A DNA stretch of 63,179 bases, counting the filler, from Guillardia theta CCMP2712 (taxonomy: Eukaryota > Protista > Cryptophyta), in NCBI RefSeq assembly GCF_000315625.1. It is 5 parts of 5 records of this genome, joined end to end, with 100 filler letters (N's around TTAATTAATTAA, not from the genome) between each part and the next. Parts side by side here need not be neighbours in the genome. Positions count along the whole stretch, not along the records: positions 45,386 to 57,674 come from NW_005434412.1; 4 more parts are not named here. One strand, written 5' to 3'. The position numbers were made by a program, and so were the translations under genes. Under the pieces are notes generated by a model. That model worked only from the letters and a program-made list of their open reading frames with translations. It searched no databases and was not told the origin of the DNA. Each line of letters begins with the position of its first letter. Positions within the stretch are counted from its first letter, which is position 1. This document shows, piece after piece, positions 12,951 to 60,099 of the stretch.

Positions 12951-13785
12951 AATGAAAGGGTTGGATTTTATAAAATCCAGAGTAATGATTTGTTCAGTGG
13001 GAATCGCAGTGTCCATCAATAGTATACAATTCAATGGTTTGCCTATACATTTAAGTACTTTATTCTTTTTCACACTTGAAGCACATGACAAGTGCATCGG
13101 TTGTTGCTACCAGTTGAACTCAAATAAACTATACCCGCGGAGCAAGCCGCCTTTATTGACCTTTAGTCAATCTCAAGCCCGCCTCACATAACAAACTTCC
13201 ACTGCCCTTAAACTACAACCCCAAACTACACCCGCGGAGCAAGCCGCCGAAGGCGGCAAGCTTTGGTTTACACGCTAGACTTGACTACAGTCAAACTCAA
13301 ACACGCCTCAAGTTTGAATATTTGAATTAGATAATCGATTTAATCTCAAAATGCTTAAGACAACCCAAGTCCGCCTCACTAAAACTTTACCCCAAAGTCC
13401 TTAAATTTAACCAAAATCCACCTAAAATAACAACCATATGGTTATTTTTCTATAATTTTGTATAATTTTCTAATTTAACCACAATCCGCTTAAAATAACC
13501 CAAATCTGGCTTAAATTTTAAAAGTCCTAATTATAAATTTCAACATTATGCACGATTTCAAAATTTTTAACCCACATTATGCCTTTTTGGACCCCCCAAA
13601 AAATGACAAGGACCAAGTGTCGTCTTCTCGGCGCTATCTGGCTGGCACGGCTGGCATGCGATCCGTCAGGAAGGCGGTCGGGGGCTTCTCAAGAGGATTT
13701 TTTCTGGCTCGGCCATACTGATCCGAGGCTGGAGAACAACCTTTGCATGAAGGCGGACTGATGAGGGCTCAAATTCAATCATCTG

Positions 13786-22848: not shown

Positions 22849-23838
22849 GCCTGATCTCTCCGGGCGGCCGTGACCGGTCAGCGGACCGTGTCAGCAGGCC
22901 CGTGACATGTCAGCCGGCTGACAGGGGCCGTGACCCGGCTGACAGGCTCACCTGACCGGTCACGTGACACATCACGTGACCGAGACAAGACTTTTTTATA
23001 TCGCAGATCCAAAAACCCATAGGACATTTCTCCCAGGGGGAAGAAAACCTCCCTTGACCCCCCTGTTTCTCGACGGATCCTGCCGGCCGGGCCGGTCAGT
23101 AGACCGACTGCAGCCTTCAGCCCCGCCTCAGACCCCCTGGAGGCCCGCCAGGAGGCTAAGTGTCCGGAGATTGGCCGGGGGCCTGATCTCTCCGGGCGGC
23201 CGTGACCGGTCAGCGGCTCGGACCGTGTCAGCAGGCCCGTGACATGTCAGCCGGCTGACAGGGGCCGTGACCCGGCTGACAGGCTCACCTGACCGGTCAC
23301 GTGACACATCACGTGACCGAGACAAGACGGAAGTTTTTTATATCGCAGATCCAAAAACCCATAGGACATTTCTCCCAGGGGAAGAAAACCTCCCTTGACC
23401 CCCCTGTTTCTCGACGGATCCTGCCGGCCGGGCCGGTCAGTAGACCGACTGCAGCCTTCAGCCCCGCCTCAGACCCCCTGGAGGCCCGCCAGGAGGCTAA
23501 GTGTCCGGAGATTGGCCGGGGGCCTGATCTCTCCGGGCGGCCGTGACCGGTCAGCGGACCGTGTCAGCAGGCCCGTGACATGTCAGCCGGCTGACAGGGG
23601 CCGTGACCCGGCTGACAGGCTCACCTGACCGGTCACGTGACACATCACGTGACCGAGACAAGACTTTTTTATATCGCAGATCCAAAAACCCACAGGACAT
23701 TTCTCCCAGGGGGAAGAAAACCTCCCTTGACCCCCCTGTTTCTCGACGGATCCTGCCGGCCGGGCCGGTCAGTAGACCGACTGCAGCCTTCAGCCCCGCC
23801 TCGGACCCCCTGGAGGCCCGCCAGGAGGCTAAGTGTCC
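22849..23838 (-). repeat. 332-bp satellite in inverted orientation, about 3 copies
   Basis: Reverse complement of the unit at 1-2444. Confidence 0.97.
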
Positions 23839-32700: not shown

Positions 32701-33129
32701 CCAACGCGCCCTCCCCTCTCGTCCTCCCATGCCTCCGAAACGGCACCCAAGCCCTTCTCCCCCCATCATCCCTGACCCGATCACCCTCACGCGTGTGCCT
32801 CCTGATACCGGCCCCTCGCAAGGCTCTAGCCGTATGATCGTCCCCGCTTGGATGTACTCAAACACTCGTCCGCTGTCTTCGAAAGTCAGACCCCCGTCCG
32901 TGGACAAGTACAAGCTGGCCCGCTGCTCCTGCTGTCCGGGCGCCTCGCAGACTACTCCTGACGAGCCTACCCCCTGCCCTTCCGTAGGCCTTCCCTTCTC
33001 TCCGAACTTGCACACCACTCCCCTGCCTGCCTCCCCTATCAAAGCTCCCCATACCGTCACCACTGTCGCCCCGCCCCCGGCTATGCCCCATGTTGGCTGA
33101 AGGCTGTTTGCAATGAAGGTTTCCATCAC
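26734..33129 (-). CDS. Internal part of a very large IPT/TIG-domain repeat protein (multi-exon; ORFs 31063-33129, 30392-31042, 27561-30383, 26734-27576)
   Basis: Many repeats of the type P..GP..GGT.V.V.G..F....C.FG ... S...C..P ... V.VS.NG.D, the IPT/TIG consensus. Consecutive same-strand ORFs. Exon boundaries not resolved. Confidence 0.85.
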
Positions 33130-33177
33130 CTGGAGTATTTTGAAGGAAGGGTAATCATCTGAGCAGCGCGCGGTCTT

Positions 33178-33277
33178 NNNNNNNNNNNNNNNNNNNNNNN
33201 NNNNNNNNNNNNNNNNNNNNNTTAATTAATTAANNNNNNNNNNNNNNNNNNNNNNNNNNNNNNNNNNNNNNNNNNNN
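33178..33277. other. Assembly gap with artificial linker
   Basis: N44-TTAATTAATTAA-N44. Confidence 0.97.
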
Positions 33278-34568: not shown

Positions 34569-37500
34569 TTATTGCAGCCATTCGAGAACAATCTTTCCAT
34601 TGTCTTGTATGATTGCATTCTGCTCAAACCTTTTCATTGCAGAGGAGACAAGGTCTCCTGCACCAAGCTTTCTCATCAGACTCTGCAAATAACAAGACAT
34701 GAGTTATAAAATACTAAGAAAAACAATCACCTTGCTTTCTTTTGAACTGAAACAAGCAAGAAGATTTAAAGCCGCTTGTAGCAAATCCTCGCTGGACAAG
34801 AAAGCCTTCATGGCTGCGAGCACGGCCTCGATGCCCCCGAGCCCCGCGATCTTGACCTTGTTGTCGTCGTTGGCAGCAAGCCTCATCAGCGCCCCGCACG
34901 CCTGCTGCTGTAGGGGCTGGCTGGCGGGATGTGCACGCATGGCTGCGAGCACGGCCTCGATGCCCCCGAGCCCCGCGATCTTGACAGAGTTGTCGGCGTT
35001 GGCAGCAAGCCTTAAAAGCGCCCCGCACGCGAGCTCCTGTACAAGCTGGCTGGCGGGATGTGCTTGCAAGGCTGCGAGCACGGCCTCGATGCCCCCGAGC
35101 CCTGCGATCTTGACCTGGTTGTCGGCGTTGGCAGCAAGCCTCATCAGCGCCCCGCACGCCTGCTCCTGTACGGACTGGCTGGAGGGATGCTTGCGCATGG
35201 CTGCGAGCACGGCCTCGATGCCCCCGAGCCCCGCGATCTTGACAGAGTTGTCGTCGATGAAAGCAAGCCTCATCAGCGCCCCGCACGCCTGCTGCTGTAC
35301 GAGCTGGCTGGCGGGATGTGCACGCATGGCTGCGAGCACGGCCTCGATGCCCCCGAGCCCCGCGATCTTGACAGAGTTGTCGGCGTTGACAGCAAGCCAC
35401 AACAGCGCCCTGCACGCGTGCTGCTGTACGGACTGGCTGGCGGGATGCTTGCGCATGGCTGCGAGCACGGCCTCGATGCCCTTCACGAACATGCTGGCGG
35501 GATGTGCTTGCATGGCTGCGAGCACGGCCTCGATGCCCCCGAGCCCCGCGATTTTGGCCGAGATGTCGGCGTTGGCAGCCAGGCTCAACAGCGCCCCGCA
35601 CGCGAGCTCCTGTACAAGCTGGCTGGCGGGATGTGCACTCATGGCTGCGAGCACTGCCTCGCTGCCCCCGAGCCCCGCGATCTTGGCACGGTTGTCGGCG
35701 TTGGCAGCCAGGCTCATCAGCGCCCCGCACGCCTGCTGCTGTACAAGCTGGCTGGCGGGATGTGCACTCATGGCTGCGAGCACGGCCTCGATGCCCCCGA
35801 GCCCCGCGATCTTGACACGGTTGTCGGCGTTGGCAGCCAGATTAGCTAGCGCCCCGCACGCCTGCTGCTGTACAAGCTGGCTGTCAGGATGCTTGCGCAT
35901 GGCTGCGAGCACGGCCTCGACCATGTTGTCGGCGTTGACATCCAGGCTCCATAGCGCCCCGCACGCCTGCTCCTGTACGGACTGGCTGGCGGGATGCTTG
36001 CGCATGGCTGCGAGCACGGCCTCGATGCCCCCGAGCCCCGCGATCTTGGCCGAGATGTCGGCGTTGGCAGCCAGGCTCAATACCGCGCCGCACGCGTGCT
36101 GCTGTACAAGCTGGCTGGCGGGATGTGCTTGCATGGCTGCGAGCACGGCCTCGATGCCCCCGAGCCCTGCGATCTTGACAGAGTTGTCGGCGTTGATAGC
36201 AAGGATCATCAGCGCCCCGCACGCCTGCTCCTGTACATCCTGGCTGGCGGGATGCTTGCGCATGGCTGCGAGCACGGCCTCGATGCCCCCGAGCCCCGCG
36301 ATCTTGACAGAGTTGTCGGCGTTGGCAGCCAGGTTCCGTAGCGCCCCGCACGCCTCATCCTGTACATCCTGGCTGGCGGGATGCTTGCGCATGGCTGCGA
36401 GCACGGCCTCGATGCCCCCGAGCCCCGCGATCTTGACGTTGTTGTAGGCGTGGGCAGCCAGCCTCAACAGCGCCCCGCACGCCTGCTGATGTACGAGCTG
36501 GCTGGCGGGATGTGCGCGCATGGCTGCGAGCACGGCCTCGATGCCCCCGAGCCCCGCGATCTTGACAACGATGACAGCGTTGGCAGCAAGGTTCCATAGC
36601 GCCCCGCACGCCTGCTCCTGTACATCCTGGCTGGCGGGATGTGCTTGCATGGCTGCGAGCACGGCCTCGATGCCCCCGAGCCCCGCGATCTTGACAGAGT
36701 TGTCGTCGTTGGCAGCAAGGATCATCAGCGCCCCGCACGCGTGCTGCTGTACATCCTGGCTGGCGGGATGTGCACGCATGGCTGCAAGCACGGCCTCGAT
36801 GCCCCCGAGCCCCGCGATCTTGACCTGGTTGTTGTCGTTGACAGCCAGGCTCCATAGCGCCCCGCATGCCTCATCCTGTACGAACTGGCTGGCAGGATGT
36901 GCGCGCATGGCTGCGAGCACGGCCTCGATGCCCCCGAGCCCCGCGATCTTGACACGGTTGTCGGCGTTGGCAGCCAGATTAGCTAGCGCCCCGCACGCCT
37001 GCTCCTGTACATCCTGGCTGGCGGGATGTGCACGCATGGCTGCGAGCACGGCCTCGATGCCCCCGAGCCCCGCGATCTTGACCTTGTTGTCGGAGATGCA
37101 AACCAGGCTCATCAGCGCCCCGCATGCCTCATCCTGTACATCTTGGCTGGCGGGATGTGCACGCATGGCTGCGAGCACGGCCTCGATGCCCCCGAGCCCC
37201 GCGATCTTGACACGGTTATCGTCGTGGATAGCAAGGTTCCATAGCGCCCCGCACGCCTGCTGCTGTACAAGCTGGCTGGCGGGATGCTTGCGCATGGCTG
37301 CGAGCACGGCCTCGATGCCCCCGAGCCCTGCGATCTTGGCACGGTTGTCGGCGTTGGCAGCAAAGCTCCATAGCGCCCCGCACGCCTGCTGATGTACGGA
37401 TAGGCTGGCGGGATGTGCACGCATGGCTGCGAGCACGGCCTCGATGCCCCCGAGCCCCGCGATCTTGGCACGGTTGTCGGCGTTGGCAGCCAGATTAGCT

Positions 37501-40122
37501 AGCGCCCCGCACGCCTGCTGCTGTGCAAGCTGGCTGGCGGGATGTGCTTGCATGGCTGCGAGCACGGCCTCGATGCCCCCGAGCCCTGCGATCTTGACCT
37601 TGTTGTTGTCGTTGCGAGTCAGGCTCATCAGCGCCCCGCACGAGTGCTCCTGTACGGACTGGCTGGCGGGATGCTTGCGCATGGCTGCGAGCACGGCCTC
37701 GATGCCCCCGAGCCCCGCGATCTTGACCTTGTTGTCGTCGTTGGCAGCCAGGTTCCATAGCGCCCCGCACGCCTGCTGATGTACGAGCTGGCTGGCGGGA
37801 TGTGCACGCATGGCTGCGAGCACGGCCTCGCTGCCCCCGAGCCCCGCAATCTTGACACGGTTGTCGGCGTTGGCAGCCAGGTTCCATAGCGCCCCGCACG
37901 CCTGCTCCTGTACATCCTGGCTGGCGGGATGTGCTTGCATGGCTGCGAGCACGGCCTCGATGCCCCCGAGCCCCGCGATCTTGACAGAGTTGTCGTCGTT
38001 GGCAGCAAGGATCATCAGCGCCCCGCACGCGTGCTGCTGTACATCCTGGCTGGCGGGATGTGCACGCATGGCTGCAAGCACGGCCTCGATGCCCCCGAGC
38101 CCCGCGATCTTGACCTGGTTGTTGTCGTTGACAGCCAGGCTCCATAGCGCCCCGCATGCCTCATCCTGTACGAACTGGCTGGCAGGATGTGCGCGCATGG
38201 CTGCTGAGCACGGCCTCGATGCCCCCGAGCCCCGCGATCTTGACACGGTTGTCGGCGTTGGCAGCCAGATTAGCTAGCGCCCCGCACGCCTGCTCCTGTA
38301 CGGACTGGCTGGCAGGATGTGCACGCATGGCTGCGAGCACGGCCTCGATGCCCCCGAGCCCCGCGATCTTGACCTTGTTGTCGGCGTTGACAGCCAGGCT
38401 CCCCAGCGCCCCGCACGCGTGCTGCTGTAGGGGCTGGCTGGCGGGATGCTTGCGCATGGCTGCGAGCACGGCCTCGATGCCCCCGAGCCCTGCGATCTTG
38501 ACACGGTTGTCGGCGTTGACAGCCAGGTTCCATAGCGCCCCGCATGCCTCATCCTGTACATCCTGGCTGGCGGGATGTGCACGCATGGCTGCGAGCACGG
38601 CCTCGATGCCCCCGAGCCCCGCGATCTTGACAGAGTTGTCGGCGTTGGCAGCCAGGTTCCATAGCGCCCCGCACGCCTGCTGCTGTAGGGGCTGGCTGGC
38701 GGGATGTGCACGCATGGCTGCGAGCACGGCCTCGATGCCCCCGAGCCCCGCAATCTTGACACGGTTGTCGGCGTTGGCAGCCAGGTTCATCAGCGCCCCG
38801 CACGCCTGCTGCTGTAGGGGCTGGCTGGCAGGATGTGCACGCATGGCTGCGAGCACGGCCTCGATCCCTTTGTGCTTTTCAATTTCGACTCTTGATTTGT
38901 CGTTGGACTCTGCCAGGTCTCCCAGTATTTCGCATGCGTACATCTGTACATCCTTTCTCAATTGATGTGCCTTCACAATCTTCTTTCCCATTGCTCTTAT
39001 GACAAGCTCTATTCCTCTTCGTTTCATCTCGCCCTTGTTTCCAGGTCTTTGCAGCTCCTTCAAGATTCTCACGATCTCCTCTGCGCTGCTCGCTTGCTCC
39101 AGTTGGTCTATCATGTGCTGTTTTGCCATGGAGCTGCTCGAGGTCTGGTTGGATGGCGACACATGGCTGGATTTCCTTTTTGAGCTTTTCGATTCTTCAA
39201 CACCTGCAGCACCCGAGTCTGACTTGTTTGCGTGAAGCTCCTTCTTCTGAGCCAATCCAACACCTCCTGATTCAGCTCCCAGCTTCGCCATACTTGCCTC
39301 TGTTGGTGCTACAGCATTCCTACCAGCCTCGCAAGCTGCTGTATCGATTTTGTCACCGTCTTGATCTTCATCATGACGTTCAAATCCTTCTGTCTTTACT
39401 TTCTTTCGCTGAGGACCTTCGTCTCCTGGTGGTCGATCGTGAGTGTCTTGCCGTCTGCTCCATGTGATCACATCGCTTGACACCCGAGCCAGCAGGTGAC
39501 TCCCAGGGCATGCAAACCGAGACAAGTCCTTGACATTCGCATGCAGCGAGAGGTTCCGACCCATCCAGTAGTACAGCTTCTTGGCGAACTTGATCGCGTC
39601 CTCGTCTGCTACTGCTGCCTCGTGCCCGATCACAAAGTCCACATGCTTGATCAGCTCCTGCGCTACGACGCCCGACCAGCACAAGTTGAGCACCACCAGA
39701 CGCAGCTTCTTGCTCCCCTTGACCACGTGACTCAGAGACCTTGCAAGCTGCTCAGCGGAGATGCTCTTGCCTCCTATCTCGATGTTGCCGCTCTCGGTGC
39801 CATGGCAGGCCAGGTGGAGGATGACGGGCTGATGATCGTCAATCTCACACATGAGGTCTCCGAAGTCCCGGTAGAAGCTCGACTCAAAGCTCATGCTCTC
39901 AGCAAACTTGATGAACGCCGCGTCTCCTTTGAGGCGAGCTCCTTTCATAAACTCCTCTCTGATCTCCTCAACATCCAAGTCGCTGCGCTCCTTCGCGTCG
40001 GCGAAGAAGAGGACCTTGTGAGGGAGGTCGGATGAGAAGAGAGGGTCGTTGGTATCGTCTGCTACATGGTCGAGCTGCTGGTCCTTGCAGCAGACGCAGA
40101 TCTTGCTGAGCGTACTTGTCAT
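34569..40122 (-). CDS. CHAT-like (caspase/HetF clan) domain plus about 32 tandem 43-aa armadillo repeats; one +1 frameshift near 38205; short 3' exon 34682-34569
   Basis: N-terminal VILHLACHG and LVVLNLCWS (His/Cys dyad pattern of CHAT). Repeats KIAGLGGIEAVLAAMRAHPASQxVQxxACGALxxLAxNxDNxV. ctgctgagca at 38201-38210 versus consensus ctgcgagca. Intron 34730-34683 joins ESK|SLMRKLGAG...WLQ*. Confidence 0.85.
34805..38868 (-). repeat. 129-bp coding tandem repeat (ARM units)
   Basis: gcatggctgcgagcacggcctcgatgcccccgagccccgcgatcttg recurs every 129 bp. Confidence 0.97.
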
Positions 40123-40318
40123 GGTCTGTCAGGTCATGGGGGAGGAAGAGGAGGGAAGGCGCTAGTGCGTCAAAATTGCCATGAGCTCCTGCCGCGATGA
40201 CCTCTGAGCATGGGCAGCGGCTCTCACGAGCGCCAATCAAATATATACATACTAGAGAAGCGGAGGATGAAGGGGAAAGAGGAGGAGGGAGAAGATTGGG
40301 AAGACTAGCTAGAGAGAG

Positions 40319-45385: not shown

Positions 45386-45615
45386 CGAGGAGAACGGAGG
45401 ACGGAGGACGAGGAGGAGGAGGTTGTTTTTGTTGGGGGAGTGGGGTGGGGGGGAAGCGGGGTGGGCGGAAGGAGCATGGAGAGTAGCTTGATATATCGCA
45501 AGATGACAGGCCGTCAGCTCAGTCTTTGTGAGAGAAAACCTGACCTTGAATAGCAGGACTCGTGAGATGGAGAAGACGTTGCGATGAAAGAGCAAGTATC
45601 CGACCCACGTAGCAA

Positions 45616-46110
45616 GTGGTACATGTGCTTGCATGCGTTTTCATTCCTGTAAACCTTGATCCGATCAGGGGCAAGGACGAGGAGGTTCTCCAGAGCCTAG
45701 TGTTCATCCGACCTCAAGCATGCACGGTCGAGGCCGTCGCGCTGGTCAAGGCAACGCTGCAGGTCTACGGGCTGAGCATCGTGAGCGAAGGCGAGATCCC
45801 TTACAGCTACATCCGAGCCAAGAGCATAGTCGATCGAGTCTACTGCAAGCGAGCTGAGATGTACCTGGAGACGTCGATAGGAACAAGTCTGATAGGTTGC
45901 CTCAGGTCCTGCCGGGCCGATATGGATGACGTCACTGCTGTAAACGTGGGGCTCTTTGCCTCCTCCTTCCACATGGAGTGGGAGGAAGCAGTCCGATCAG
46001 GACGAGTTCTGAGTGCGAGGAAGGCGATGGAGAGCTTGAAGTGCTCGCCCAAGATTTTGAACGACATGTGCAATCAGGTGAGGGAGGAGGAGGAGGAAGA
46101 GGAGGAGGAG

Positions 46111-46145
<35 letters not shown>

Positions 46146-49100
46146 GGAGGAGGCCAGGGCAGTAAGACATGGTAGGGTAGAGGAGGGAGGAGGGATAGCG
46201 TAAGGACGGTAGAGACCTCCATGGTGTTGGGGATGAGGATGACGATGAGGATGGGGGAGGGGGTTGGGGGGTGGGGGGACGGCAGCATCGGGGAGTATTC
46301 ACGGGAACTTGTCAGGCGGAGGAGGAGGGGAAGAAGGTCAGGCTGAACGAGCACTGCGATTGCTTCGCGATAGGCAGCGGCGCCAGCAGGACGTTTGTGG
46401 TCAACGGTCAGTTCCCGCACTTGTGCGAGGAATTTCTTGCTCCTGCAGCCGCCGTCAAGTTCTTCCGAGTCTGCTGGGCGCGCAGGCAGCTGAGCTGGAG
46501 GGAGTTCGATACCCAGGTGATCGGAGGAGGAGCTGAGGACAAGCTGGAGAAGGGGTCGATCCGAGAGATCTTCCTGAGAGACTGGAAGGAGCTGGGACTA
46601 CCAGCCGCCCCCGCTGCAGATCTCGAGCTCGTCTTCGCCTCCTCGTCCTCCTGGGAGTTCCTGCGGGACAGGAGGCTGTGGCTGGGGGAGGACCTGGCAG
46701 GGGATGAGGACCGTCGGCTGTTGGTTGACAAGCTGTTTGCGGCCCGGGAGTTCGACCTGCTGCTGGAGAATCCTTTCTTCTTTGACCGCGGCGGCCGCGA
46801 AGTCTCCCTCCTCACCCTCGCTCGCCATCGAACGGCAGCGGAGCTGGTGGAGGCGATGCAGGATCGGGGGGAGGAAGTGCCTTGCGCCGCTGCCCTTCTC
46901 CTCCCTCCCTCCCACTCTGAGGACAAGCGCCTGATCCGGTGGATGCGCTCCTATGACGAGGCATCGTCTTCGAGGGTGGCCATGCTGGAGCGAGGATACG
47001 AGGAAGCGGTGGCGGAGGTTGAGGAGAGGAGCAGAGCGATGGAGCAGAAGGAGGAGGAGCAGCGAGAGCTGCTGGGGAGGCTGGAGCTACTGGGGAGGGA
47101 GCGGGAGCCTCTGGTCAGCAAGCTCCTGGATGCCCTGGAGGCCTATAGGATGGTAAGGAGGACGATGTTGGCGGAGGAGGAGGTCGGGATGGACTGCAGC
47201 GTGTCCCTGGTGGAGGATGCAAAGCTCGTGGCGTCCATCATGGAGGAGGTGAAGGAGGAGAGGAAGGAGGAGGAGAGGAGGAGGAGGGAGAAGGAGGAGG
47301 AGAACGCTCAGCTCACAGCCCAGCTGCAAGAGACTCGAGATTCGTTGGTCCGCATGGAGGAGAAAGTGAAACAGACAGCAAGGGAGCTGCTGGAGATGAA
47401 GGAGAAGTGCAACAAATGCCATGAGAAGAACGGTCAGTTATCCCCTCTCTCCTCTTATCCTCCTCCTCTCTTCCTTTCCTCCTCTCCTCTCCTCCCCTCC
47501 ACCTCCTCCTCCTGCTCCTCCTGCTCCTCACTTTTTCTACAGAAGCTCTGGCAGCAGAAGTCGCCCGTCTCATCGGCTCGCTGCAGCAGCTACGAAAGGA
47601 CTTCCAGGAGGAAGCGAACGAGCTGAGGGCGGAGGCGACGGCGCTGGCGCGGGAGGTGAACGGAGTTTTCCTACAGAAAGAGCAACTGGAGGAAGAGCGG
47701 TTGGCCATGATGCAGGACAAGCAGTTTCTGTCCTCTTGCCACTTGACTGTCGTAGAGGACGCGAAGATGCTGAGCATTCAGCTACAGGAGCTGAGGGAGG
47801 AAAGCGAGAAAGTGCGAGAGGGTAAGGAAAAGGAGGAGAAACGAAAGCAAGCAGCAGCAGCAGCAGAAGAAGAAGCAGCACATGAAGGAGCAAAAGGAGG
47901 AGAAGGGGGAGATGGGGGCGGAGGGAGATGGGAGGTGGGCGGGGAGCAGGAGCAGGAGAGCAGGAGCAGGAGAAGCAGCAGGAGGACGAGAAAGAGGACA
48001 AGACTTTGGTTAGCTGATTTTGTGATGTCAATGCAGGAAAGAAGAAAGCAGAAGAGCAGCTGGAAGAGCTCAGGGGCTCGCAGGTGAAGCTGGAGAAGGC
48101 AGCTGGGCGTCTGCTGAGGGCGATGAGGCCGGCGAGGGCAGGGGAGCAGGAGGAGCAAGACGACCAGACGTTGGCGCGGGAGCTGCTGAAGGAGCAGCGT
48201 CTTGACGAGATCTGTTCTGCATGCCAAGGACCGCCGGCAAGCAGCGATCAAGCGGCTAGACAAGAAGGAGCGAACAGCGGGGAGCAGGAAGCAAGACAGG
48301 AAGGAGCTGGGAGCGGGGAGGATGCGGAGAGATGGGTTGGGAAGCTCGAGAAACAGGTCGAGGAGCAGCAGGAGCAGAACGCACGGCTACTGAGGGAGCG
48401 AGAGCCGCTGATCGCCGAGCTGATCACCAGCATCGAGAGCTTCCGGCAGCTGGAGGCGGCGATCACAGGGGACGTGCTACAGTGCGCGGGGGTGGGGATG
48501 GTTCTGTTCAGGGAGGACGAGGAGTACGTGGTGAGGTCGATGGCGAGGGAGGGAGCGGCAGCGAGGAGCGAGCTGAGGCTGGGGGATGTGGTGGTGCGGG
48601 TGAACGAGGAGGAGATCAGAGGGAGGAGGAGCGAGGAGGTGAAGGACCTCGTGCTGGGCCCCGAGGGCTCGATGCTGGAGCTTCAAGTGCTGCGGTACCC
48701 ATGCACGTCCTCCTTCCCCGTCCGCCTCATGAGGGGAAGGAGGGGCTGGGACCCGACGACGGTCCAGGAGGAGACTCGTAACCTGCTCGAAGTTCTCAGC
48801 TCTATGCGCGAAGTCTCGAGCCGCAAGGACAGAGAGCTGGCGGCGCTGAGAAAGAGAGTCGAGCAGCTGGAGTCTAGCCGGAGGAAACCCAAGACTCCTT
48901 CTCCTGCTCCTTCTGCGGCTCCTGCGGCTCCTGCACTTCCTCCTACTCCCTGGGGCATCCTGCTGACCGAGAAGGCCCCTTACAAGGTGACCTCGCTGGT
49001 CAAGGGAGGGCTGGCGGAGTCTCAGAAGCTGCTGCTGGTGGGAGATGTTCTCGTCATGGTGGAGGGAAAGAACGTCAGCAGGATGCTGTGCAAGGACCTG

Positions 49101-49280
49101 CGAGCTCTGCTGCGAGACCCGAGGAGGCAGAAGCTGAGCCTCGTGGTGGAGAGAAGGGGAGGAGGAGGAGGGGAAGGAGGAGGCGGAGGGGGAGGAGGAG
49201 GAGGAGAGGGAGCTACTGAACACCTTCAACTGGTACTTCTCCGCCAGCCGAAGGAGGAGGAGAGTGCAGGCAACAGTTAA
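45616..49280 (+). CDS. Multi-exon protein: degenerate NDK-like domain, coiled coil and two PDZ domains (5' end uncertain)
   Basis: LVFIRPQA...IVSEGEI, LSWREF..VIG, GSIR..WKELGL and VFASSS resemble protist NDK-like proteins. GVGMVL..AARSELRLGDVVVRVN..GPEGS and WGILL..LLVGDVLVMVEG are PDZ-like. Introns filled with GAG repeats. Confidence 0.7.
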
Positions 49281-49309
49281 CAGGGTTTACATGAGATAGC
49301 TATACAACA

Positions 49310-49398
49310 TCACTTGACATCGGGAGTGTCGGCTCGTTTCACTTTGTACAATCGGTGCATCTGAAGAACCATGTGAGGAGGAGGAGGAGGAGGAGAGC

Positions 49399-49467
<69 letters not shown>

Positions 49468-52400
49468 GAGAGAGGGAGAAGATCCAGGAGAAGAAAGGGG
49501 AGGGCGGAAGTAGATGAGTGTGTGTAGGGGGGAGCAGACCTTGAGCTTGAGATCGTGGATTCTCTTATCGTGCAGCTGAATCTCCGCGATGATCCTCAGC
49601 CCGAGGTCATCGGTGAAGACAACGCAGAGGGTCAGGTCGCGGTAGCCGTCGGAGAGGTAGCCCGGGTCAAACTTGTTCTTGACCCGGCAGATCGGCATCC
49701 CTGTGTCAGGAGCTGAGAACCACCGGTACACCTCCAGCAGGTACTGCGGCCCCTCGCACACAACTGACACCCGGATCTGAGGGGAACCCGCCGGTCAGGG
49801 ATGACATTTCTCAGCTCGTGGATGGGTAGGAGAGAGAGGAGGGTTGTTGAGGAAGCGAGGAGGAGGGGGTGAGGGAGAGGTGAAGGAGGATGGGGAGAGG
49901 AAGGGTGAGAAGGGTGGGGGAGGGGGGTAGGACTTCTCTCAGCTCACCGGGTCGAGGATGCGGGCGCAGTAGGGCCAGGAGCACTTGTACGCCTCGTTTG
50001 TGTACTTGGACAGCTTGTCGTGCATTCGTTCGCGCGTCTTGATGCGGCCGGGGAAGAGATCGACCGAGGAGACGCCGTCGGAGAACGCGCAGGTGAGGTG
50101 AACGACGCTGGAGAAGTCGGGAGGGGGGAGGTCCTGGATGGAGGAGTGCTGCATGAGGATCTGGTAGACCCTCTTCTTGAAGGGGAGGTCGAGCAGCTCT
50201 GCTCGGGTGTGGAGCTGAGAGACGAAGTTGGTTTCGTTGCTCATCAACAGCCCAGAGGTGGAGGAGTGAAAGAGGTTCTTGTGCTTCTGAAACTCCAGCT
50301 CCAGCAGGTCCTCCTCGCTCACGCGCACAGCCCCAATCTGCAGGAGGGATCAGGGGGGAGAAGGGCGCGAGGATCACAGAGCGAACAGGAAACAGAGACA
50401 GCCATGTGGCAGCAACATGGCAGGAAGCTTGTCAACAGAGACGCAGCTTGTTGCTCTGACTGTCAACTCACCGCCGGGGAGTCTTGACGGGTGTCGTCGT
50501 AGTTGCTCGTGAGGTATCCTGTCCTTGCGATCAGCTCCTTGCCGTAGGGGTCGCTATAGATCTCCATGTAGCGGATGTGGCAAAAGTGAGCGAGGATGTC
50601 GAGGAGCTTCTGAATGATGCCCTTGAGCTTGTGGAACAGATCCATCCCCTGCTCCTTCCACATGTTCATCTTCAGCACATTCTCCACGAAGAAGGCAAAT
50701 CTTCTCTCGAAGTCATCGGTGAAGAGCTCAGAGCTCCTCAAGCTGGAAGCTATCTCCCCATCTTCGCTCGCTATGGAGCTCAGCTCGAGCGTCAGGTCGT
50801 ACCCCTGGGGCTCCTGCTGGGCCTCATCGTTGTCATGGAAGGAGTTGGTGGGTCGGAGGAGCTTCTGACAGGTCTCCAGCACGAAGTCGTGCAGCAGCTT
50901 GCAGTGATCGTTGTGTATCACGTACTCTTCGTGACTCACTCCGTTGAGGTGCAGCTCCCCAGCATCCGAGCCCACCCCTGTGCTCAGCCTCCGCATGCTG
51001 AACCGAGACAGGCTCGGGGTCTCGCGCTTGTGCAGGCCGTCGCGGAGCTCGCTGAGAAACTCGTAGAGGGCGTCGACGTGCTTGGCCTCAAAGTCCTCGA
51101 AGAGCGAGAAGTGAGCGCATGCCTCCAGGAACCTGCGACAGACAAGCAGCTCAGTCAGTGCATCGCAGCTCAGTCAGCGCATCGCAGCTCAGGACGCCTC
51201 CGGCCTGCCGCTCACCTCTTCTCGATCGTCTGCACGCCTTTGCGCCTGTCGAAGAAGCCTTTCTTCTCAGAGTTGAGCAGGAACCCGTCTTCTTCAGTCA
51301 GGCACAGGCGATGCCGCACGTACTCGATCTGCTTGCGAAACCTCTTGGGCAGCCCGTCCGTCATGTTCTTGCGCCTCTGCACCAGCGAGTACCACAGGCC
51401 GAAGCTCATCAGGGAGCAGATGGCGAGGGCGGCAGCGAGAAGGGAGACGACGAGGATCATGCTGCTGTTGGACTGCGAGGCCCCCAGGGAGCAGATGGAC
51501 CTGTTGATGTGGATCTGTCCTCCAGGCCACATAACCGCGTCTTGCAGCCACTTGTCGTAAGGCAGAGACTCTAGATAGATGGGATGGATCTCGTTGCTGT
51601 ACCACCTTGCGATCTCCTTCCACCCTTCCTTCGCATAGTTGATGACCAGGTAGGAGCCGCCCAGCCTGTCCAGGTTCTGGTCGAAGGAGACAGCCCCGGA
51701 TGCGCCATCGAAGCGAACGCTCCTGAGAGCATTCCTGACCTGAGTCCCGTCCAAGATGACATTCCCCTGTGACAACAAGTAGCCGATGGCATGCGCGATG
51801 GCGTAGATGGCATCATATGCAAACACGATGTAGATATGCTGCTGGCCTCTGTTGATCATCTCCTGCAGGCCTGACTTGAAATTCTGCTGCATGACGGTAT
51901 CGTACCCTGACACATCCAACTGCTTCCAGAAGTTGATCATGGCGTCCAGCTGCGGGCTGGGATCAGGGATGTAGCTTCGGAGAGAAAGGATCCCCTTGGG
52001 CAGGAGGGATGGGTCGGCGGTGGAGACGTCTTCTCCTGCTATCCAGGTGAAGTTGGAGGTGAGGTTCAACTTGTTGAAGGCGATGAAGATCTCTTGAGCG
52101 ATGTAGTAATGGATGCACAGAACGATCACTGTCGTGTTGCAGGTCTTGGTGGCAAAGTTCTGCATCAGTACAACTCCGTTGTTGTCAGCCACGAAGCTGC
52201 TCTCAGCCGTAGCAAGGACTAACTCGTCTGCTATCTTGACTGAGTTGGTCTTGACCCGGGACTTGAAGTTGTTCGCCAGGCCTTGGCAGTAAGAGTCATC
52301 ACACGTGATCAGCTTGATCGAGGTAGCTTCTATGTAGGCCGTCAGATCCGCCAGCGCGATCGCCTCGACCGCGCTTGAGTAGCAGACTCGGGAGAAGAAA

Positions 52401-54091
52401 GGATAGAGAGCCTTGTTGGAGAACGCAGGGCTGGCAGCTGTGTGGCTCACCAGCAGCCGCTTGTCTTGCGTGAACATCGGCGAGAAGACTTCAACGTCGT
52501 TGCTGTACCCGACGCCAGCAGCAGCCATCACAGGAGCTGATCCAGGGGGCGGGTCAGTCAGGTTGTTCATGACGGCCTCGAAGAAGAAGGTCTTGAGGTA
52601 GTTCTGTGGTGGAATCGCTCTGACTGGCGTGATGTTTTGAAGTTGAAGGAACAGCTTGATCTGAGGCAGGAGCGTCACGTTGCGATTGATCCTCTCGATC
52701 GCCACCAGGGCGGCTGCCGCATGCTCCCTGGACCAGTACTGGAAGATCCCCCCGACGTTGATGTACGACTCCGGCTTTCCGTTGAGGATGGATTGAAGCT
52801 GCTGCCCGTCCACCTGCACTCCAGCTGTGCTCGTCCATACACCGAGGCTGAAGAACTTCTGCCCGGACTTGCTGTTGATAACAAATCTGCACTAGAGCTT
52901 CAGACATTTTGTCAACAACATTTTACCTTACCTGGTGACTCCAAGATCGTTGTTGGAGTTGAACGAAATGTAGCCGCTGGCTCCTTCAAACTTCACCTGG
53001 CTTAACGCCCCCAGCATTGCCGTCGAGTTCCATGCCTGCTCAGCATCACTCCTCACCACCACATCCAATGCGTGTGCGACTGCGTAAACAGCATCGTATG
53101 CCGCTGATATGTACACATTGCTTGCGAGTTGTTCCAACCCCGGGTATGAACTGCTGGGCAGCGACGTCCACACACTCTGCAACTTCTGGAAGGCAGCAGT
53201 CGTCGTGTTGGCTTGGTAAGAGATTCCGATGTATGAGTCCGGGAGATGCTTGGCGTTCAGCGGCACGTCAAAGTCAGTGCTGAGCCAGGAGTACTCGTCG
53301 GATACTTGTATCAGCTCAACTTCGTTGAAGAAGGCGATCTTGGACCCAGTCGACATGAAAAGAAAGACGTTGGTTGAAAGCATTGAGAGCCTTGAGAAAT
53401 TTCTAACCAATACCTTCAGTTCCGTCTCGTTCCCAAAGTTCCAAGTGTAATTCTTTTCGATCCTGACCTTCCCAAGAACAGCGGCCTGGAACGATTGTGA
53501 AATATCAGAGTAGGCATGAGAATTCTCGACAATGATCTGGCAGCTGCGGATCTTCAACAACTCTGCGATGTCTGCCAATGCCTTTCCTGAGTCGGCAACA
53601 GAAGGGCAAACTCTCGAGTACAGAGGATACAAAGACTTGTCTGAGAACGCCGTGTCATCGCTACTGTACCCCATCAGCAATACACCGTGCGAGTCCAATA
53701 TCCTGGTCACCATCTTAGTTTCATTGGTGAATGCTGGTCCGATCATTGCAACAGGTTTACTTCGATTGATCTCCTGCTCTATTGTTGATCTCAACAGATT
53801 CTCCTTGACAGCAGCGATGGATTGTGTCGAGACATTGCTGATTGTACACAAGGACTCTGCGATAGAAGTGTCGACAAGATTCAGAGTCAACTTGACGCCG
53901 GATAGGATGGTCGAGTCTCCGTTGATGTTCAGAACAGCAATCCTTGCTGCGGACAATGCCTCGTTCTCCCAATACCGACCACCAAGCTCAGTGGCGAATA
54001 AACCCCCGATGGAGATGTTGCTGCCATAGCACGTTGGGGGGTTGAGAGCCAGGGAAGTGACGACGAGCAGCAGAATCAGAGATACTGACAT
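49310..54091 (-). CDS. Single-pass receptor: signal peptide, two ANF-receptor/Venus-flytrap domains, TM helix, cytosolic RelA/SpoT-like nucleotidyltransferase domain (multi-exon)
   Basis: Each extracellular unit has IGG(L/I)F, A..A...IN, S.K.LYP.(Y/F)SRV, AYDA(V/I)YA.AHA and F.GASG..SF. TM is MILVVSLLAAALAICSLMSFGLWYSLV. C-terminal motifs GRIKTRERMHDK, ILDPV|IR.SVV, RVKNKF, GYRDL, AEIQLH. Last exon 49360-49310. Confidence 0.8.
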
Positions 54092-55888
54092 CTTGAAGTC
54101 TGTGATGGTAAAACACTACCGATGCAACAAGCTTCTGATAGCCTTACAACTCCTCAACAACATCCTCATGCCCTGACAAATCTCAAAGTTCGAGCCAGGA
54201 GCCTCGAAACCAGTGCTTGTGCCGTTAGCCAGAAGCTCAGTGAAGCATCCCCTCGTCCTTCACAGGATTCTTGCAGGGAACTGCAATGATGTCACAGTAG
54301 TCACAGCGCTGTCACATGTACGACTGTCATCCCGGCCTAATCAACTTCCACATGCAGACCCTCGTGTTGCTGAGGTGTTGCGCAGGAGGAAGTCCTCCGA
54401 CGGCACTGAAGACAGCTCCGCCTACTGCTCTTCTCTATAGATGTAGTGAAGGATCTCCGAGGAGGTCAAGGTATGATGATTATCTCTGTTGCCTCGCTGA
54501 TGAGAGTGAAAGTTTCCGCTCTTGTTCCGTCACCTGCGCCTTATTCATGAGTCAATCACAATCAATGTTTGAGCGCATTCGCTTTCTCCCTCTCCTCTAA
54601 CAGCTGCTCGAGTTTCCGATCCTTCTTCATGCTTTCTAAACATATCTCTACCTTTCTTGCTCGGCATGTCTCACAATTCTTCTGCTTAAGAACTATCTGA
54701 CTTCCCAATAAAATCCCAATTGCTGAATTTCCATGCCTATCATGTGGAAGAATCCAGCCCAGCATCTCATCGGACTAACTCTCATCATCTTTGCAGACGT
54801 TCTCGCTATCACATTGTCATCGCAACCTGCCCTTGCTGAGTCGTGCCCAACCTAACGATCAATCAATTCGCCCCTCGAACCTCAACATGCTGGACTATCG
54901 TGCAAGCATCATTCCACAACAGCAGGAGGGATCGAAGGACAGGTGGATGCAGAGACGATGGCGAACTCTGAGCGTCTTCTCTGCATCCCCAGGTCTGTCT
55001 GCATAGAATCGAGGCAATTCGACAGATGTCGCCATTCCGCTAGGATGTGCTGCTGGATTGCCCAACATTGCACCACAAGTGGGGTAGCAGTTTCCTGATG
55101 TCAATCTATGAGGGTGGGGTACCCATCAATAGCCTCGTAAAAGGGTGGTGAAAGAATGAAGTAGAGGGATTTTGATGGGTAGGGTATATTTGTGTCCATT
55201 TGACTCAGTAGGGTGGGGTCATGCAAAGTAAGTATAGGTAGGGCAAGGTTGGTATCATGCAGGGTGGGGTTGGCAAGGGGTGTATCCTGTAGTGAGGTGC
55301 CATGAAGCAGGGGTGGGCCTCGTAGGGGTAGTCAAATTCCTTGGAATGCGAGGGAGTGACAAAGGCAGATTGACCAATAATAGGGGGTAGGGGTGGAAGA
55401 TGGAGGGTGGGGTGGGGTGAAGGAGATTTTCGGGGAGGGGTCACACCAGATCCAATGACCCCCCCAATTTACTGCCAAAGGATGGGGGGACATGGGAGGC
55501 CTTTAAGATATCGTCTGAGCCAAAATTACTACAAGGGGGATTTAAATAAATATTAATATTAGGAAAAGACTCTTTTTCAAACTTCACCTCAAATTGTCGA
55601 CGAGGGATTGGGGATGGGAAGACATAGCAAGGTAGGATCAGTGCAGGGAGGGAGTTGGATCAGAATGGGAAGAGACGATGCTGAGTCGGAGAAGAAAGGA
55701 AGGGCAAGAGGAGAGAAAGATCATTCGGAGGAGTGTAGAACTAGGGGGGAGTCAGAGGAGGGAGTTGGAGAATCAGTAGGAAGGGAAAGAGTGTGAGTTT
55801 CCTAGGAGATAGAGCAGCTGGAGGAGAGCAAAACGAATATAGAGGTAGAGATGGGAAAGTTGAGACATTGATTGCTTCCTGATGCATT

Positions 55889-56774
55889 TCATTTACAAGA
55901 CTTGAGTGAAAGTTCCAACCGTTCCCGACTGTGAGCAAGCCAGTGAGAACTAGCTAGAGGAGCATATGTCTCAAACCTGCGCTTGCATCCAACAAACGCG
56001 CGGGAGGATGCAGATTGGTTGTCCGACCTGAGCAGGGTTGAGGAAGGGAGGAGGTAATGAACGCTTACAGTCAGAAGGCCAGTGTTGTTCACGACAGGGA
56101 CGTCCGGGTTTGCCTGGAGCATGAGACTGAGTTTTCGTGCTGCTCGTCTTCTCCTTCTCTCCTCCTCCCTCCCCTCCCCTCCTTTGTCTTCTCCTTGCCT
56201 CTCTTCTCCTCCATCCTGTGCCACCCGTTCTTTCTCTCTGCTCTCTCCTCCTCTCCTCTCTCCCCATTCAGTGACAGACCTCTAAGATGTTGGTCGAGCT
56301 GGTTCCAAAGCGGGAGGCTAGGAGGTCGAGTGTATCTCCTTAAACAGGAAGTCAGTTCCTCTCCTGTAGGGAGGGAGCGGGGAGCAGAAAGCAGCAGCGT
56401 GTCCAACAGCCCACCATGTCGGGTAATATAGGTTGGGCCGAGTCTCAGCTCAGTCCATGCGCCCACGCTGAGGGCTCAAGTGAGCGCAGAAGGAAGAGGG
56501 GGAAAGTGTAGGAGCGAGTATCATGCTGACGTCATCAAACGTCACCTGTCCGGGGTGAGGATCGCAGGGTTGGCCCCCCAGATCTGACGGGTGGGTGAGA
56601 ACGACAGGAGGGCAGGAGGAGGAGGAGGAGGAGGAGGAGGAGGAGGGGGATGGGCGAACGAGTACCTGCAGCCAGTCGCTGTTGTACCTCGCAGCAGCTC
56701 CCATGATAGTCTAGTGGGACGAGGAGGTCAGATCGAGTGCTCACAAGCCATCTCGGACCCCTCCCTTATTCATT

Positions 56775-56817
<43 letters not shown>

Positions 56818-57674
56818 CTCTTTCCCCTCCCCACTTCCTTCCTCCAGTTTCTTGCCTTAACCCCTTTGCATTCCCTCCCTCCCCTCTCTTCTTCCTCTTG
56901 TTGCTCCTCTCTCCCCCCCCTCTCCTGGCACTGCCTCGCCTTCCCTTCATGCTCTCACTTCGTTCCTCCATCACCCTCGCTCTCACCTCTCCTATCGACA
57001 AGCAGTATCGACATTTCTTCACCAGTACAGAGAAGCACAGCTCCTGCAGGTAGAGTCAGTGAATGTCCTGTTTCCCCGCTTCGCTCCAGTTTGGCTCTCT
57101 GCCCGCCGATGATATTCCCGCCCTGTTCATCGCCTCCCTCCTCTCTCCTCTCTCCCTCTCTCCCTCCCTTTCTTCCTCTCCTCTTCCTTCACCTTTCCTC
57201 TCTGCTGACAGAGATACCCGATACACACTGGCAGCAGCAGCATGAGTGGGATCAAACAGCTAGAGAAAGGCACCGGAGTCAAATGCATGCACGCAAAACG
57301 AGAAAGATCTCGTCTCCATCCCTCGACGAGGATACCTTCAGCCAGAATCAGCCAGCAACCCCCCGCTTCTTGTACTTCTAAGCAACCTTTAAGATATCAA
57401 ACAAGCACCCTTTTTCAATATTCTTCAAGCGTCCTTCAGATGGGCATCCAACTCTGCTGATCGAGTCATATTACATCTTCACATTCATCCTATTCTAGTT
57501 CATACCTGCAATCCTCCGTTCACATTCACGCCTGCCCGCGCAAGCCGTCGAGCCGCAGGGTCGTGAGGTCTCGACAGTCCTGCCTCCTTCGACCAGGGAG
57601 AATTGGATCCCAAGTTCAAGATTGGTCTGCGAGACGTTCGCTGCTCGAGCTTCATGCGATTGTCTGACGGTCCC
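55889..57674 (-). CDS. Probable exons of an unidentified multi-exon gene (possibly the 3' part of the GH99-like gene across the gap)
   Basis: Complex-sequence blocks alternate with microsatellite-filled GT-AG intervals; no motif recognised. Confidence 0.3.
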
Positions 57675-58195: not shown

Positions 58196-58200
58196 CTTAC

Positions 58201-60099
58201 CATGTCAAGGCAGCCATAATCATAGAGGAAGAGGAGATGATTGAATGGTTGGCAACGACGTGCGGGGAAGAGAGAGAAAGAGTCTCACCTTGTCTCGGTG
58301 ACGTTCGGTTCCAGTGGGAGTCCTCCAGTATCCTCCCCTCCCTCTCCCTCACCTCCCGTCTGCCGTCTGCGGACGAAACCTCTGAAGCTGCCGCTGCATC
58401 GCACGACACCCCCCAGTCCGGCAGGAGACTTGAGTTCCCGCTCCCGCTCCCCCTCTCCTCCTCCCCGGCGACAAGATTCTTGAAGCTCCTCGTCCACTTG
58501 AGGTAGCTCTCCCCAAATTCCCTGCTCGGCTCGATCTGCGTTCCCTCGTGCCACTCGTTGAACGAGTTCACCAGCGCCATCGGCAGCCTCCCTCCCTTCC
58601 TCTCCCCCCCTTCCTCTCCTCTCCCCCCCCCTTGGCACTTTATCACCCTCCTCAACTCCTTCCATGCCTTGAGGTACTGCGCCCCCTCCGCGCGCTCGAT
58701 CGCTGCCCTTCCTCCTCCTCGCATCTTCCTGTCGTCGTACCCCGGGGAGACGTAAGGAACGACTCCCATCCCCGCCCTCCTCGCTGCCTCCCCGAACTTG
58801 GCGTGCAGGTACGCGGATTGCCAGGAGAAGGCTGCGTCCATCTTATCGGGCTGACCAGCATCGTAGAGGTTGTACCCGGTGACTGAGGACAAGTTGATCG
58901 CCTTGTAAAGGTCCCAGGGGAACTCCGAAGGAGAAGGGTTCCACCACAGGATGTCCCCGATGATGAAGAGCGGCCGTCCTATCCTCTCCTGCACTTTCTT
59001 GATGGCATTGTTCAGCGGCTCCACGAAGTTCTGAAAGTCTCGGAGGGTGTAGAGGAAGAGGACGGGGCATCCGTCGACCCTCATGTAGTTGGGATGAAGG
59101 AAGTAGTGCTCGGCCGCGTACAGCAGGTGGTGCTCGAGGATGCGGGGGTTGTCCCCCCGCATCAGGTCCACAGATCCTCCTCCCTCCCCCACCCCCAGCA
59201 CGTCCCTCACCTCGTACATGAGCGCCATCGGTACCCCGTCCTCTACCTCCAGGTGCCTCTGTATCAGTTGGTCCACCTCCCCCGAAGGACTCCACCACTG
59301 CAACGGCTCCTTCCATCCTTCCACCACGTACTGCTTCCCCCTCGCTGGCTCCACCTCCTTCCCCTCCCTCGTGCAGCGCGGCCTGCTGTGCTTGCCCTCG
59401 CTGTCCACTAGCTTACATTGCCCATCCACACTCCCCTGCTTGTTTGGCGCCCGCGTCCCATCCCCTCCCCAGGAGACTGCGAAGAAATCGATGCATGCTG
59501 CTCTAGCCCACTGGTGGTGCAGCTTCATGACGCTCGCGTCGAAGCTCTTGTACTCCCCTAGGACAGGCTCGAAGGGTCGAGGGAAGACCTGCAGCAGGAG
59601 CAAGGTCAGGCTCTGAAGCCTCCGGGAGGTCGTGACAGTGCCGTCAGAAATCCCCAGGATGCAGTCACTAGCACAAGACAGCGAAGGATCCCACTAAGAC
59701 TGCTCTGTGAATCCTAGTTCATGCTCCTTGGCGGCTTCACCAACTTCTGCACTGCAAGACTGACTGCAACATTCTTCTCATCATAGTCTCCTCGCATCAC
59801 ACTCTTTCACATGGCTTGGGCCCAGCCTCAACTCGTACCTCGCCAGCATACAAGGAACCTTCTCTCTTGCTTCTTTGCATTCATGCTCTTCTCTGACACA
59901 CATTCTCGTCTACAGCATCATTTTCCTCCTTTCGTCTTTCCTCCTCTCTCCTCCTCTCCCCCTGACTCTCCCCCTGACTCTCCCCCTGACTCTCCTCCTC
60001 CTCTCCTCACTGTATTGAGCTTGTCACCTGCCATTGTTCGCCGAAGCCATACCACGTGTAGTAGTAGGCCCCGAGCAGCATCGCTGCGGTACACGCCAT
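58201..60099 (-). CDS. GH99-like (endo-alpha-mannosidase/GH71-99) glycoside hydrolase; exons 60099-60028 and 59588-58201, continuing downstream
   Basis: GAYYYTWYG..WQ|VFPRPFEPVLGEY, IDFFAVSW, PGYDD and NSFNEWHEGTQIEP (GH99 catalytic ExxE motif). Confidence 0.85.

Follow-up and report, generated by a model that had tools for sequence, protein, structure and literature searches.

In receptor guanylyl cyclases of the natriuretic-peptide-receptor type and in receptor adenylyl cyclases, a flytrap ectodomain and a single helix are followed by a cytosolic regulatory part and a C-terminal enzyme that makes a nucleotide signal. Eukaryotic alarmone signalling is viewed as having come with the plastid; where (p)ppGpp might be made in the cytosol is an open question. 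Here we analyzed a gene of the cryptophyte Guillardia theta CCMP2712 that lies in a stretch of 63,179 nt made of five joined parts (the window), along which all positions are counted and in which positions 45,386-57,674 come from NW_005434412.1. Its product has the layout of an enzyme-linked single-pass receptor, with a sensor ectodomain, one helix and a predicted cytosolic enzyme-type domain of RelA/SpoT synthetase fold on one chain. This architecture is real and well supported; it joins two known parts in a new way, and it is present as a family.

Plastid RelA/SpoT homologues (RSH1-4) of plants and algae and the eukaryotic divRel proteins resemble the G. theta protein in being eukaryotic proteins with a synthetase domain. 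The accessible text of PMC6881373 regards the RSH of algae as probable plastid enzymes and contains neither the word "transmembrane" nor "Guillardia"; that of PMC3153485, in which "transmembrane" is likewise absent, describes the hydrolase Mesh1 and synthetase-only divRel scattered in Dictyostelium/amoebae, fungi and diatoms. RelV/exported synthetases (VpEAS, VcRelV, SaEAS) are, in the available part of PMC12691689, bacterial proteins of ~257 amino acids (aa) that are exported whole, and RelA/SpoT-like toxin domains are described in the available part of PMC3482391. The accessible portions of PMC10083569 and PMC11646218 hold nothing on eukaryotic receptors. Our literature search, with most subscription papers and most supplements outside it, found neither this family nor any membrane receptor carrying an alarmone synthetase described, though a mention in a comparative-genomics supplement may have escaped it.

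A spliced gene encoding flytraps, a helix and an enzyme domain

The receptor gene runs on the minus strand from 54091 to 49310 in six exons (Table 1), separated by five introns of 45-179 nt that are all GT..AG. Its spliced frame of 1389 aa is closed by a stop codon, and the translation is identical, letter for letter, to stored protein P0001 (GUITHDRAFT_121912). We found all six exons joined, with the introns absent, on one contig of 4747 nt (run X1, record 2), while run X2 carries exons 2-6 and exons 1-2 on two overlapping contigs. In runs X3-X6, the joints of introns 2-4 were present in four of four runs and that of intron 1 in two of four. Among raw RNA reads (X17), one spans intron 4 and six loose ends at 49540 match exon 6; the unlabelled run X12 held no splice joint of this gene. 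Receptor splice joints were seen again in runs from five studies. The contig runs X1-X6 are labelled "RNA?", a guess, and no listed holder run is recorded as RNA; joints that fall exactly at the predicted introns are nevertheless difficult to account for in any other way. The first-pass annotation, made from the sequence alone, had assumed a single transcript, and the six-exon contig and the recurring joints bear this out: the receptor and enzyme exons are one gene and one transcript. The receptor gene and a frame with two PDZ matches (48018-49280, plus strand) meet tail to tail, and the poly(A) site of the former falls within the last codons of the latter, so that the 3' ends overlap.

Table 1. 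Parts of the G. theta receptor gene, with positions along the window (UTR, untranslated region)
Feature	Position	Strand	Content	Transcript evidence
Exon 1	52932..54091	-	Hydrophobic N-terminus aa 1-23 (54091-54023); Venus-flytrap domain 1 aa 46-383 (53956-52943)	
Exon 2, sensor part	51216..52886	-	Venus-flytrap domain 2 aa 444-806 (52717-51629)	
Exon 2, membrane part	51216..52886	-	Transmembrane helix ~aa 864-886 (51457-51389), basic stretch; conserved juxtamembrane segment begins	
Exon 3	50472..51132	-	All-helical, predicted cytosolic linker aa 945-1164, common to the receptor family	
Exon 4	49948..50337	-	Predicted synthetase fold begins; K1264, R1268, K1272 (50040-50014); predicted catalytic D1293 (49953-49951)	
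Exon 5	49540..49776	-	R1296; KNKF (49680-49669); GYRD acceptor loop (49647-49636); EIQLH with predicted catalytic E1359 (49584-49570)	
Exon 6	49310..49360	-	HRLY motif and stop codon	X1 record 2; X2 record 8; X17 loose ends
3' UTR, short	49272..49309	-	Poly(A) end at 49272	3 X17 reads; X2 contig also ends at 49272
5' leader, transcribed, ~450 nt	54092..54542	-		X3 contig end 54542; X4 contig end 54538

Pfam ANF_receptor (Venus-flytrap) matches both sensor domains (aa 46-383, E 1e-32 in the exon-1 frame, and aa 444-806), and hydropathy (KD19) gives one strong peak at 864 (2.55), in agreement with the two ANF-receptor domains and the one transmembrane helix of the first-pass annotation. The N-terminus gives a weaker peak (1.82), taken as a signal peptide from hydropathy alone, and two still weaker peaks (1.73 and 1.61) fall within the second flytrap domain. 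Of the N-glycosylation sequons, 17 lie in the 863 aa that precede the helix and 2 in the 507 aa beyond it, and basic residues stand behind the helix. Hydropathy, sequon distribution and these basic residues together fit a type I topology with a cytosolic C-terminus; for the receptor we propose a place at the cell surface. By sequence, the ectodomain is related to mGluR4 (E 1e-9), to taste receptors and to the calcium-sensing receptor CaSR, a likeness to the flytraps of class C G-protein-coupled receptors and ionotropic glutamate receptors; class C receptors have seven helices, whereas the G. theta protein has one, and its ligand is not assignable by match. It differs from the receptor cyclases in having two flytraps in tandem and an enzyme of pyrophosphokinase fold, and Pfam found neither a kinase-homology nor a class III cyclase domain in it.

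The synthetase-fold domain and its closest bacterial type

With the predicted cytosolic part (500 aa) as query, a search of all cluster representatives yielded 460 matches at E ≤ 0.001, with 150 of them listed; we modelled this part with AlphaFold2 from the query and 114 aligned relatives (pLDDT 85, pTM 0.83). Foldseek returned four matches to the model at E ≤ 0.001, all of them RSH enzymes, and in a wide structural search (VIA) eleven RSH-type entries ranked first, with the first unrelated row at Z 7.4. The best match was YwaC (Z 12.7, root-mean-square deviation 4.0, 155 aligned), followed by RelP (Z 12.6), SAS1 (12.2), CapRel (11.2), Rel (10.9), Tas1 (10.1) and SaEAS (9.9). Over two structural looks at this predicted model, small synthetases reached Z 9.9-12.9 versus at most 7.5 for polymerase-beta-like rows, and the small-enzyme matches span model residues ~300-499 (aa 1190-1388). 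As modelled, the C-terminal domain is of the RelA/SpoT synthetase (SYNTH nucleotidyltransferase) fold.

Conservation was scored per covered column over 187 columns in the 143 cluster representatives with a match among those listed, a set retrieved by similarity in which many members are fragments. The only invariant columns were D1293 (131/131), E1359 (97/97) and Q1361 (97/97), with R1296 (129/130), K1264 (116/118), R1268 (114/117), K1272 (118/121) and D1341 (93/100) close behind; R1296, K1264, K1272, R1268, N1328, K1327 and D1341 are kept in 93-99%, where the median column is at 0.54. Y1339, predicted to stack on the acceptor, is kept in 116 of 138. D1293, E1359, the ExQ and Y1339 correspond, in a register taken from alignments, to residues characteristic of RSH synthetases, and helices N-terminal to the core carry conserved E1199, Q1205 and R1209. 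All members of the motif series reported in the first pass are present (GRIK at 1261, DPIR at 1293, GYRDL at 1338, EIQLH at 1359), with the correction that the Arg stands four, not three, residues after the Lys. Its assignment to a RelA/SpoT-type domain stands for the fold and the invariant Asp and Glu and has to be revised for the type, which is that of RelV/exported synthetases and not of long RelA/SpoT.

This typing draws on motifs and profiles. The cryptophyte family has KxxxRxxxK, DPxRxS, KNKF, GYRD and EIQxH (EIQLH in P0001). Long RSH carry a hydrolase domain as well as DxxGxR and GYxSxH motifs; relative to them, the family has Arg for Ser at K+4, Arg for Gly/Ala at D+3 and Ser for Arg at D+5, with GYRD in place of GYxSxH and EIQxH in place of EIQIRT, and none of the long-RSH motifs RxKxxxSxxxK, DxxAxR/DxxGxR, GYxSxH and EIQIRT was found in it. 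Nor was an HD hydrolase domain recognised: there was no Pfam HD match, two HD dipeptides are not conserved, and the exon-3 model gave nothing above Z 6.7. The set of RelV/exported proteins (KxxxRxxxK, DxxRx[ST], KN[RK]F, GYRD, E[IV]QLH) is present in the G. theta protein. A DNA pattern taken from the G. theta protein (GYRD...E[IV]QxH, GGC glycine codon only) gave at least 124 genome loci in 29 of 64 genome parts, and 16 viral loci; most of them encode proteins of 255-275 aa in Vibrio, Photobacterium and Shewanella. Among 110 distinct cores, KxxxRxxxK occurs in 103, DxxRx[ST] in 103, a KN[RK]F-like motif in 94 and all three in 89, although none of these motifs is in the pattern.

The family aligned with a Vibrionaceae/Shewanella-group alignment in hhalign at 98.5% (E 4e-15, 124 columns). 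A cryptophyte profile scored the Vibrionaceae/Shewanella-group proteins at 27-58 bits, one Gram-positive small synthetase at 16.6 bits, an Apk2-type phage protein at 5.3 and four long RSH at no more than 0.4. In reverse, a profile of 18 Vibrionaceae/Shewanella-group proteins scored aa 1261-1378 at 33.3 bits, a result for which chance is excluded (best of 500 shuffles, 3.7 bits), and found 90 of the 150 listed cluster representatives at E < 0.001. Five RelV-type proteins themselves score 25-32 bits with Pfam RelA_SpoT, whose cut-off is 27; V. mytili has three RelA_SpoT matches, of which two are long RSH and the third is the RelV-type locus, as would be expected of RelV. By its sequence, the domain is of the RelV/exported type and not of the plastid or long-RSH type. 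It resembles those bacterial enzymes in fold, motif set and profile, and differs from them in being part of a eukaryotic protein, preceded by two sensor domains, a helix and a 300-aa linker, and in being predicted to be cytosolic and not exported.

The motifs also bear on the product. NCBIfam PRK09169, a family that we take to contain SKWP/XopAD-type effectors, matches aa 1258-1382 weakly (E 0.001-0.005, far under cut-off). The acceptor loop of Tas1 reads GYSGVN, and the Apk2-type phage protein has GPYKGVN and EMQYH; in the cryptophyte family the residue at Y+2 is Asp in 93 of 100, where Tas1 and the Apk2-type protein have Gly, and the GxN of Apk1/Apk2 is not found. The G. theta domain thus shares the DxxR arrangement with Tas1/Apk1, MuF-Apk2 and the XopAD-type effector domains (available part of PMC3482391), as well as the fold with Tas1, whereas its loop is GYRD instead of GYSG/GxN and it has no toxin delivery domain. 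An early idea that the DxxR motif denotes (p)ppApp was dropped, as the RelV group has the same motif with GYRD. According to the available part of PMC12691689, VpEAS of V. parahaemolyticus RIMD 2210633 uses GTP specifically, and SaEAS D121/R124 have the same D+3 spacing as the G. theta family; the sole RIMD 2210633 entry in supplement 2 of that paper (Q87Q55), which by strain and uniqueness is probably VpEAS, has all five motifs. One RelV-type member makes (p)ppGpp alone, and (p)ppGpp is our best guess for the product, though not a safe one.

We made a quick tree of 66 cores over 139 columns, comprising 23 hand-picked eukaryote-type rows, 34 pattern hits, 2 phage head proteins and 7 canonical RSH or small alarmone synthetases (SAS), without plastid RSH or Tas1. 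Canonical RSH/SAS split off at SH-aLRT 95, and the eukaryote rows fell on the same side as the GYRD/MuF set, nearer to phage than to Vibrio, on long and weakly supported branches; no donor lineage is nameable from this tree. A tblastn search of phages and plasmids with P0024 was empty at E ≤ 1, and a search for related loci in viral contigs gave no relative. Atlas searches offer leads only: unnamed eukaryote clusters at 0.95-0.97, whose few recorded members include ciliates and diatoms, and, at 0.91, clusters in which 34% and 24% of the members bear RelA_SpoT.

Several features of the bacterial and phage loci were observed in passing. Photobacterium genomes (L001, L012, L014, L031, L038, L047, L067, L073) carry two RelV-type genes ~1 kb apart. 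GYRD-type domains also occur in long phage and bacterial proteins (L125, L138, L024, L077, viral L126-L140), joined to ParB-like, inorganic-pyrophosphatase-like, eCIS-core or VgrG-like domains. In a Bordetella phage (L153:583-2848), a GYRD-type synthetase gene stands between the portal gene and a small gene, after which comes a metal-dependent phosphohydrolase; this is the Apk2-locus layout with a RelV-type loop. Many RelV-type Vibrio proteins in the clusters of P0196, P0211 and P0216 are named "phosphoribosylglycinamide formyltransferase", an apparent misannotation.

A family with exchanged sensors

At least six G. theta loci belong to this family (GUITHDRAFT_121912, _133234, _122367, _162182, _110646 and _165711). 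A single helix with the same juxtamembrane segment, helical linker and synthetase behind it also stands in records of Hanusia phi (P0155) and of Cryptomonas paramecium (P0166), as well as in metagenomic ones. Geminigera P0183 has flytrap, linker and synthetase, with no helix above threshold. A strict helix-then-motifs filter passed 24 records, some of them of the same gene, and most of these have more Lys/Arg behind the helix than before it. The ectodomains recognised are one or two ANF_receptor, CHASE (P0006), Phosphonate-bd (P0007) and Ephrin_rec_like; ANF with a Cys-rich part (P0032, P0187) and Cys-rich repeats (P0178) occur as well, and in P0003 none was recognised. P0003, P0006 and P0007 align with P0001 over the linker and synthetase, with the flytraps at noise level. 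The exon-3 linker model had no Foldseek match at E ≤ 0.001, and its best VIA matches (Z 6.7) were generic helical bundles. In receptor cyclases and kinases, the output is fixed and the input variable; swapped ectodomains on a fixed helix, linker and synthetase therefore support the receptor reading already put forward in the first pass. The family, with its common output module and variable sensors, is best read as receptor alarmone synthetases that would work much as receptor cyclases do.

In distant relatives (P0188-P0191), the synthetase domain is joined to ankyrin, BspA-LRR or LRR/ARM/TPR repeats, and is therefore also used in other settings.

Proposed mechanism and alternative explanations

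We propose that the protein enters the secretory path and takes up a type I placement, that a small ligand would shut the flytrap lobes, and that the change would travel via the helix to the conserved helical linker, opening or shutting the synthetase. In the predicted active site, D1293 and E1359 would hold Mg2+, K1264/R1268/K1272/R1296 would bind donor ATP and Y1339 would stack the acceptor base, while pyrophosphate would be moved from ATP to the 3'-OH of GDP/GTP. The signal would be ended by a separate enzyme, a hydrolase, because no hydrolase domain was recognised in the protein. We regard the spliced gene, its transcript, the domain order, the predicted fold, the conserved residues, the closest bacterial type and the family as established; the whole chain, a ligand-controlled receptor with flytraps outside and a RelV-type fold inside that would make (p)ppGpp in the cytosol, seems to us evenly poised between right and wrong. 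More tentatively, and a little short of even, we suggest that cryptophytes have a new class of cell-surface receptor alarmone synthetases, derived from a bacterial RelV/toxin-type enzyme, in which several sensors feed one alarmone pool and ligand-gated (p)ppGpp or a related 3'-pyrophosphorylated nucleotide serves as a cytosolic messenger beside cAMP/cGMP. An enzyme type of bacterial export and toxin systems would then be reused as a receptor output, and the sensor-coupled family would supply candidates for the origin of cytosolic (p)ppGpp. Should activity and ligand control hold, this would be a new signalling pathway; the question becomes testable in E. coli and in vitro, with D1293 and E1359 giving catalytic-dead controls.

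A number of results weigh against this proposal, in which enzymatic activity, ligand control and localisation are predictions. The profile search with PF04607 that had been suggested in the first pass failed to find Pfam RelA_SpoT in the G. theta protein at E ≤ 10, or in any of 43 relatives at E ≤ 1; sequence profile A1 found only YwaC among solved structures (E 0.38), and profile A2 found no synthetase in the PDB. The domain family, 460 clusters at E ≤ 0.001, is thus one that Pfam has overlooked. The donor site is rearranged: in 77 of 109 rows Pro stands for the Arg of RxK, and FaRel2 S70, G93 and R95 (available part of PMC11782079), the canonical Ser, Gly and Arg, are replaced by Arg, Arg and Ser. 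The GYRD set was chosen with a pattern from the G. theta protein itself, the identity of Q87Q55 with VpEAS is presumed, and the quick tree did not make Vibrio the sister group of the eukaryote rows. Among related records, P0102, P0118 and P0167 gave no synthetase match, P0062 has decayed motifs and P0010 altered ones, and Hanusia P0002, which is the closest of the orthologue records (81% over exon 2), ends at the intron-3 position without the enzyme. Finally, the motifs do not fix the product, since motif swaps in Apk2 (GxN and YH) left its product unchanged (available part of PMC12226406), SaEAS makes both alarmones (PMC12691689, part available), and GYRD is also found in the phage head protein L153, whose product is not assigned.

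These last points lead to the possibility that the receptor and its chemistry are as proposed and the acceptor is another: (p)ppApp, both alarmones, a new 3'-pyrophosphorylated nucleotide or a tRNA 3' end. Precedents exist in Tas1, Apk2, SaEAS, CapRel and FaRel2, the family shares the DxxR / ExQxH type with Apk2 and SaEAS, CapRel (Z 11.2) and Tas1 (Z 10.1) stand near the top of the fold matches, the quick tree puts the eukaryote rows among phage/toxin-like rows, and the extra conserved N-terminal helices (E1199, Q1205, R1209) could bind a larger substrate. We nevertheless consider another acceptor somewhat unlikely, as the acceptor loop agrees with that of the RelV group in reading GYRD instead of GYSG or GxN, and the Apk2-type protein scored 5.3 bits versus 27-58 for the RelV group. 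The rearranged donor site and the records with a missing or decayed domain would also fit a pseudo-enzyme or nucleotide-binding scaffold that signals by protein contacts, its fold merely binding ATP/GTP; the same replacements are present in the active RelV group, Tas1 and SaEAS, and the sole invariant columns are the predicted catalytic D and E and the Q, which makes this very unlikely.

An active synthetase might instead reside in an internal membrane, the endoplasmic reticulum (ER) or the ER-continuous outer plastid membrane, and respond to lumenal cues or lack ligand control. The topology evidence does not separate plasma membrane from ER, and known algal RSH are tied to the plastid (available part of PMC6881373). 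Against this stand four kinds of sensor-type ectodomain swapped on one cytosolic module. Flytrap-like sequence also begins at about residue 25, which, under the bipartite plastid-targeting rule, leaves no room for a plastid transit peptide, and we hold an internal location to be clearly unlikely. That the receptor and enzyme exons are two genes joined by a gene-model artefact would fit two Hanusia records, P0002 and P0023, the latter ending at the intron-4 position inside the enzyme. These ends look like intron retention, because the cluster of P0023 includes a full 1381-aa member with the enzyme; moreover, all six exons lie on one contig and the helix-to-enzyme joints recur in six contig runs from four studies. 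With spliced contigs whose joints fall at exactly the predicted introns, we reject the two-gene objection, to which we give next to no probability.

Elsewhere in the window, long ARM-repeat frames of 129-bp tandem units (34704-40128, minus strand; ~23 copies at 35925-38865) have a weak CHAT match upstream (E 0.019), and frames rich in IPT/TIG repeats (27561-33225, minus strand) may belong to one large surface protein. Four arrays (1-2444, 8807-10406, 16908-18198 and 22849-23838) consist of a GC-rich, satellite-like unit of 332-341 bp, 94-99% alike within arrays. We also found a glycoside hydrolase 99 / WbsX-like frame (58197-59693, minus strand) and a glycosyltransferase 61 frame (13765-15279, plus strand).

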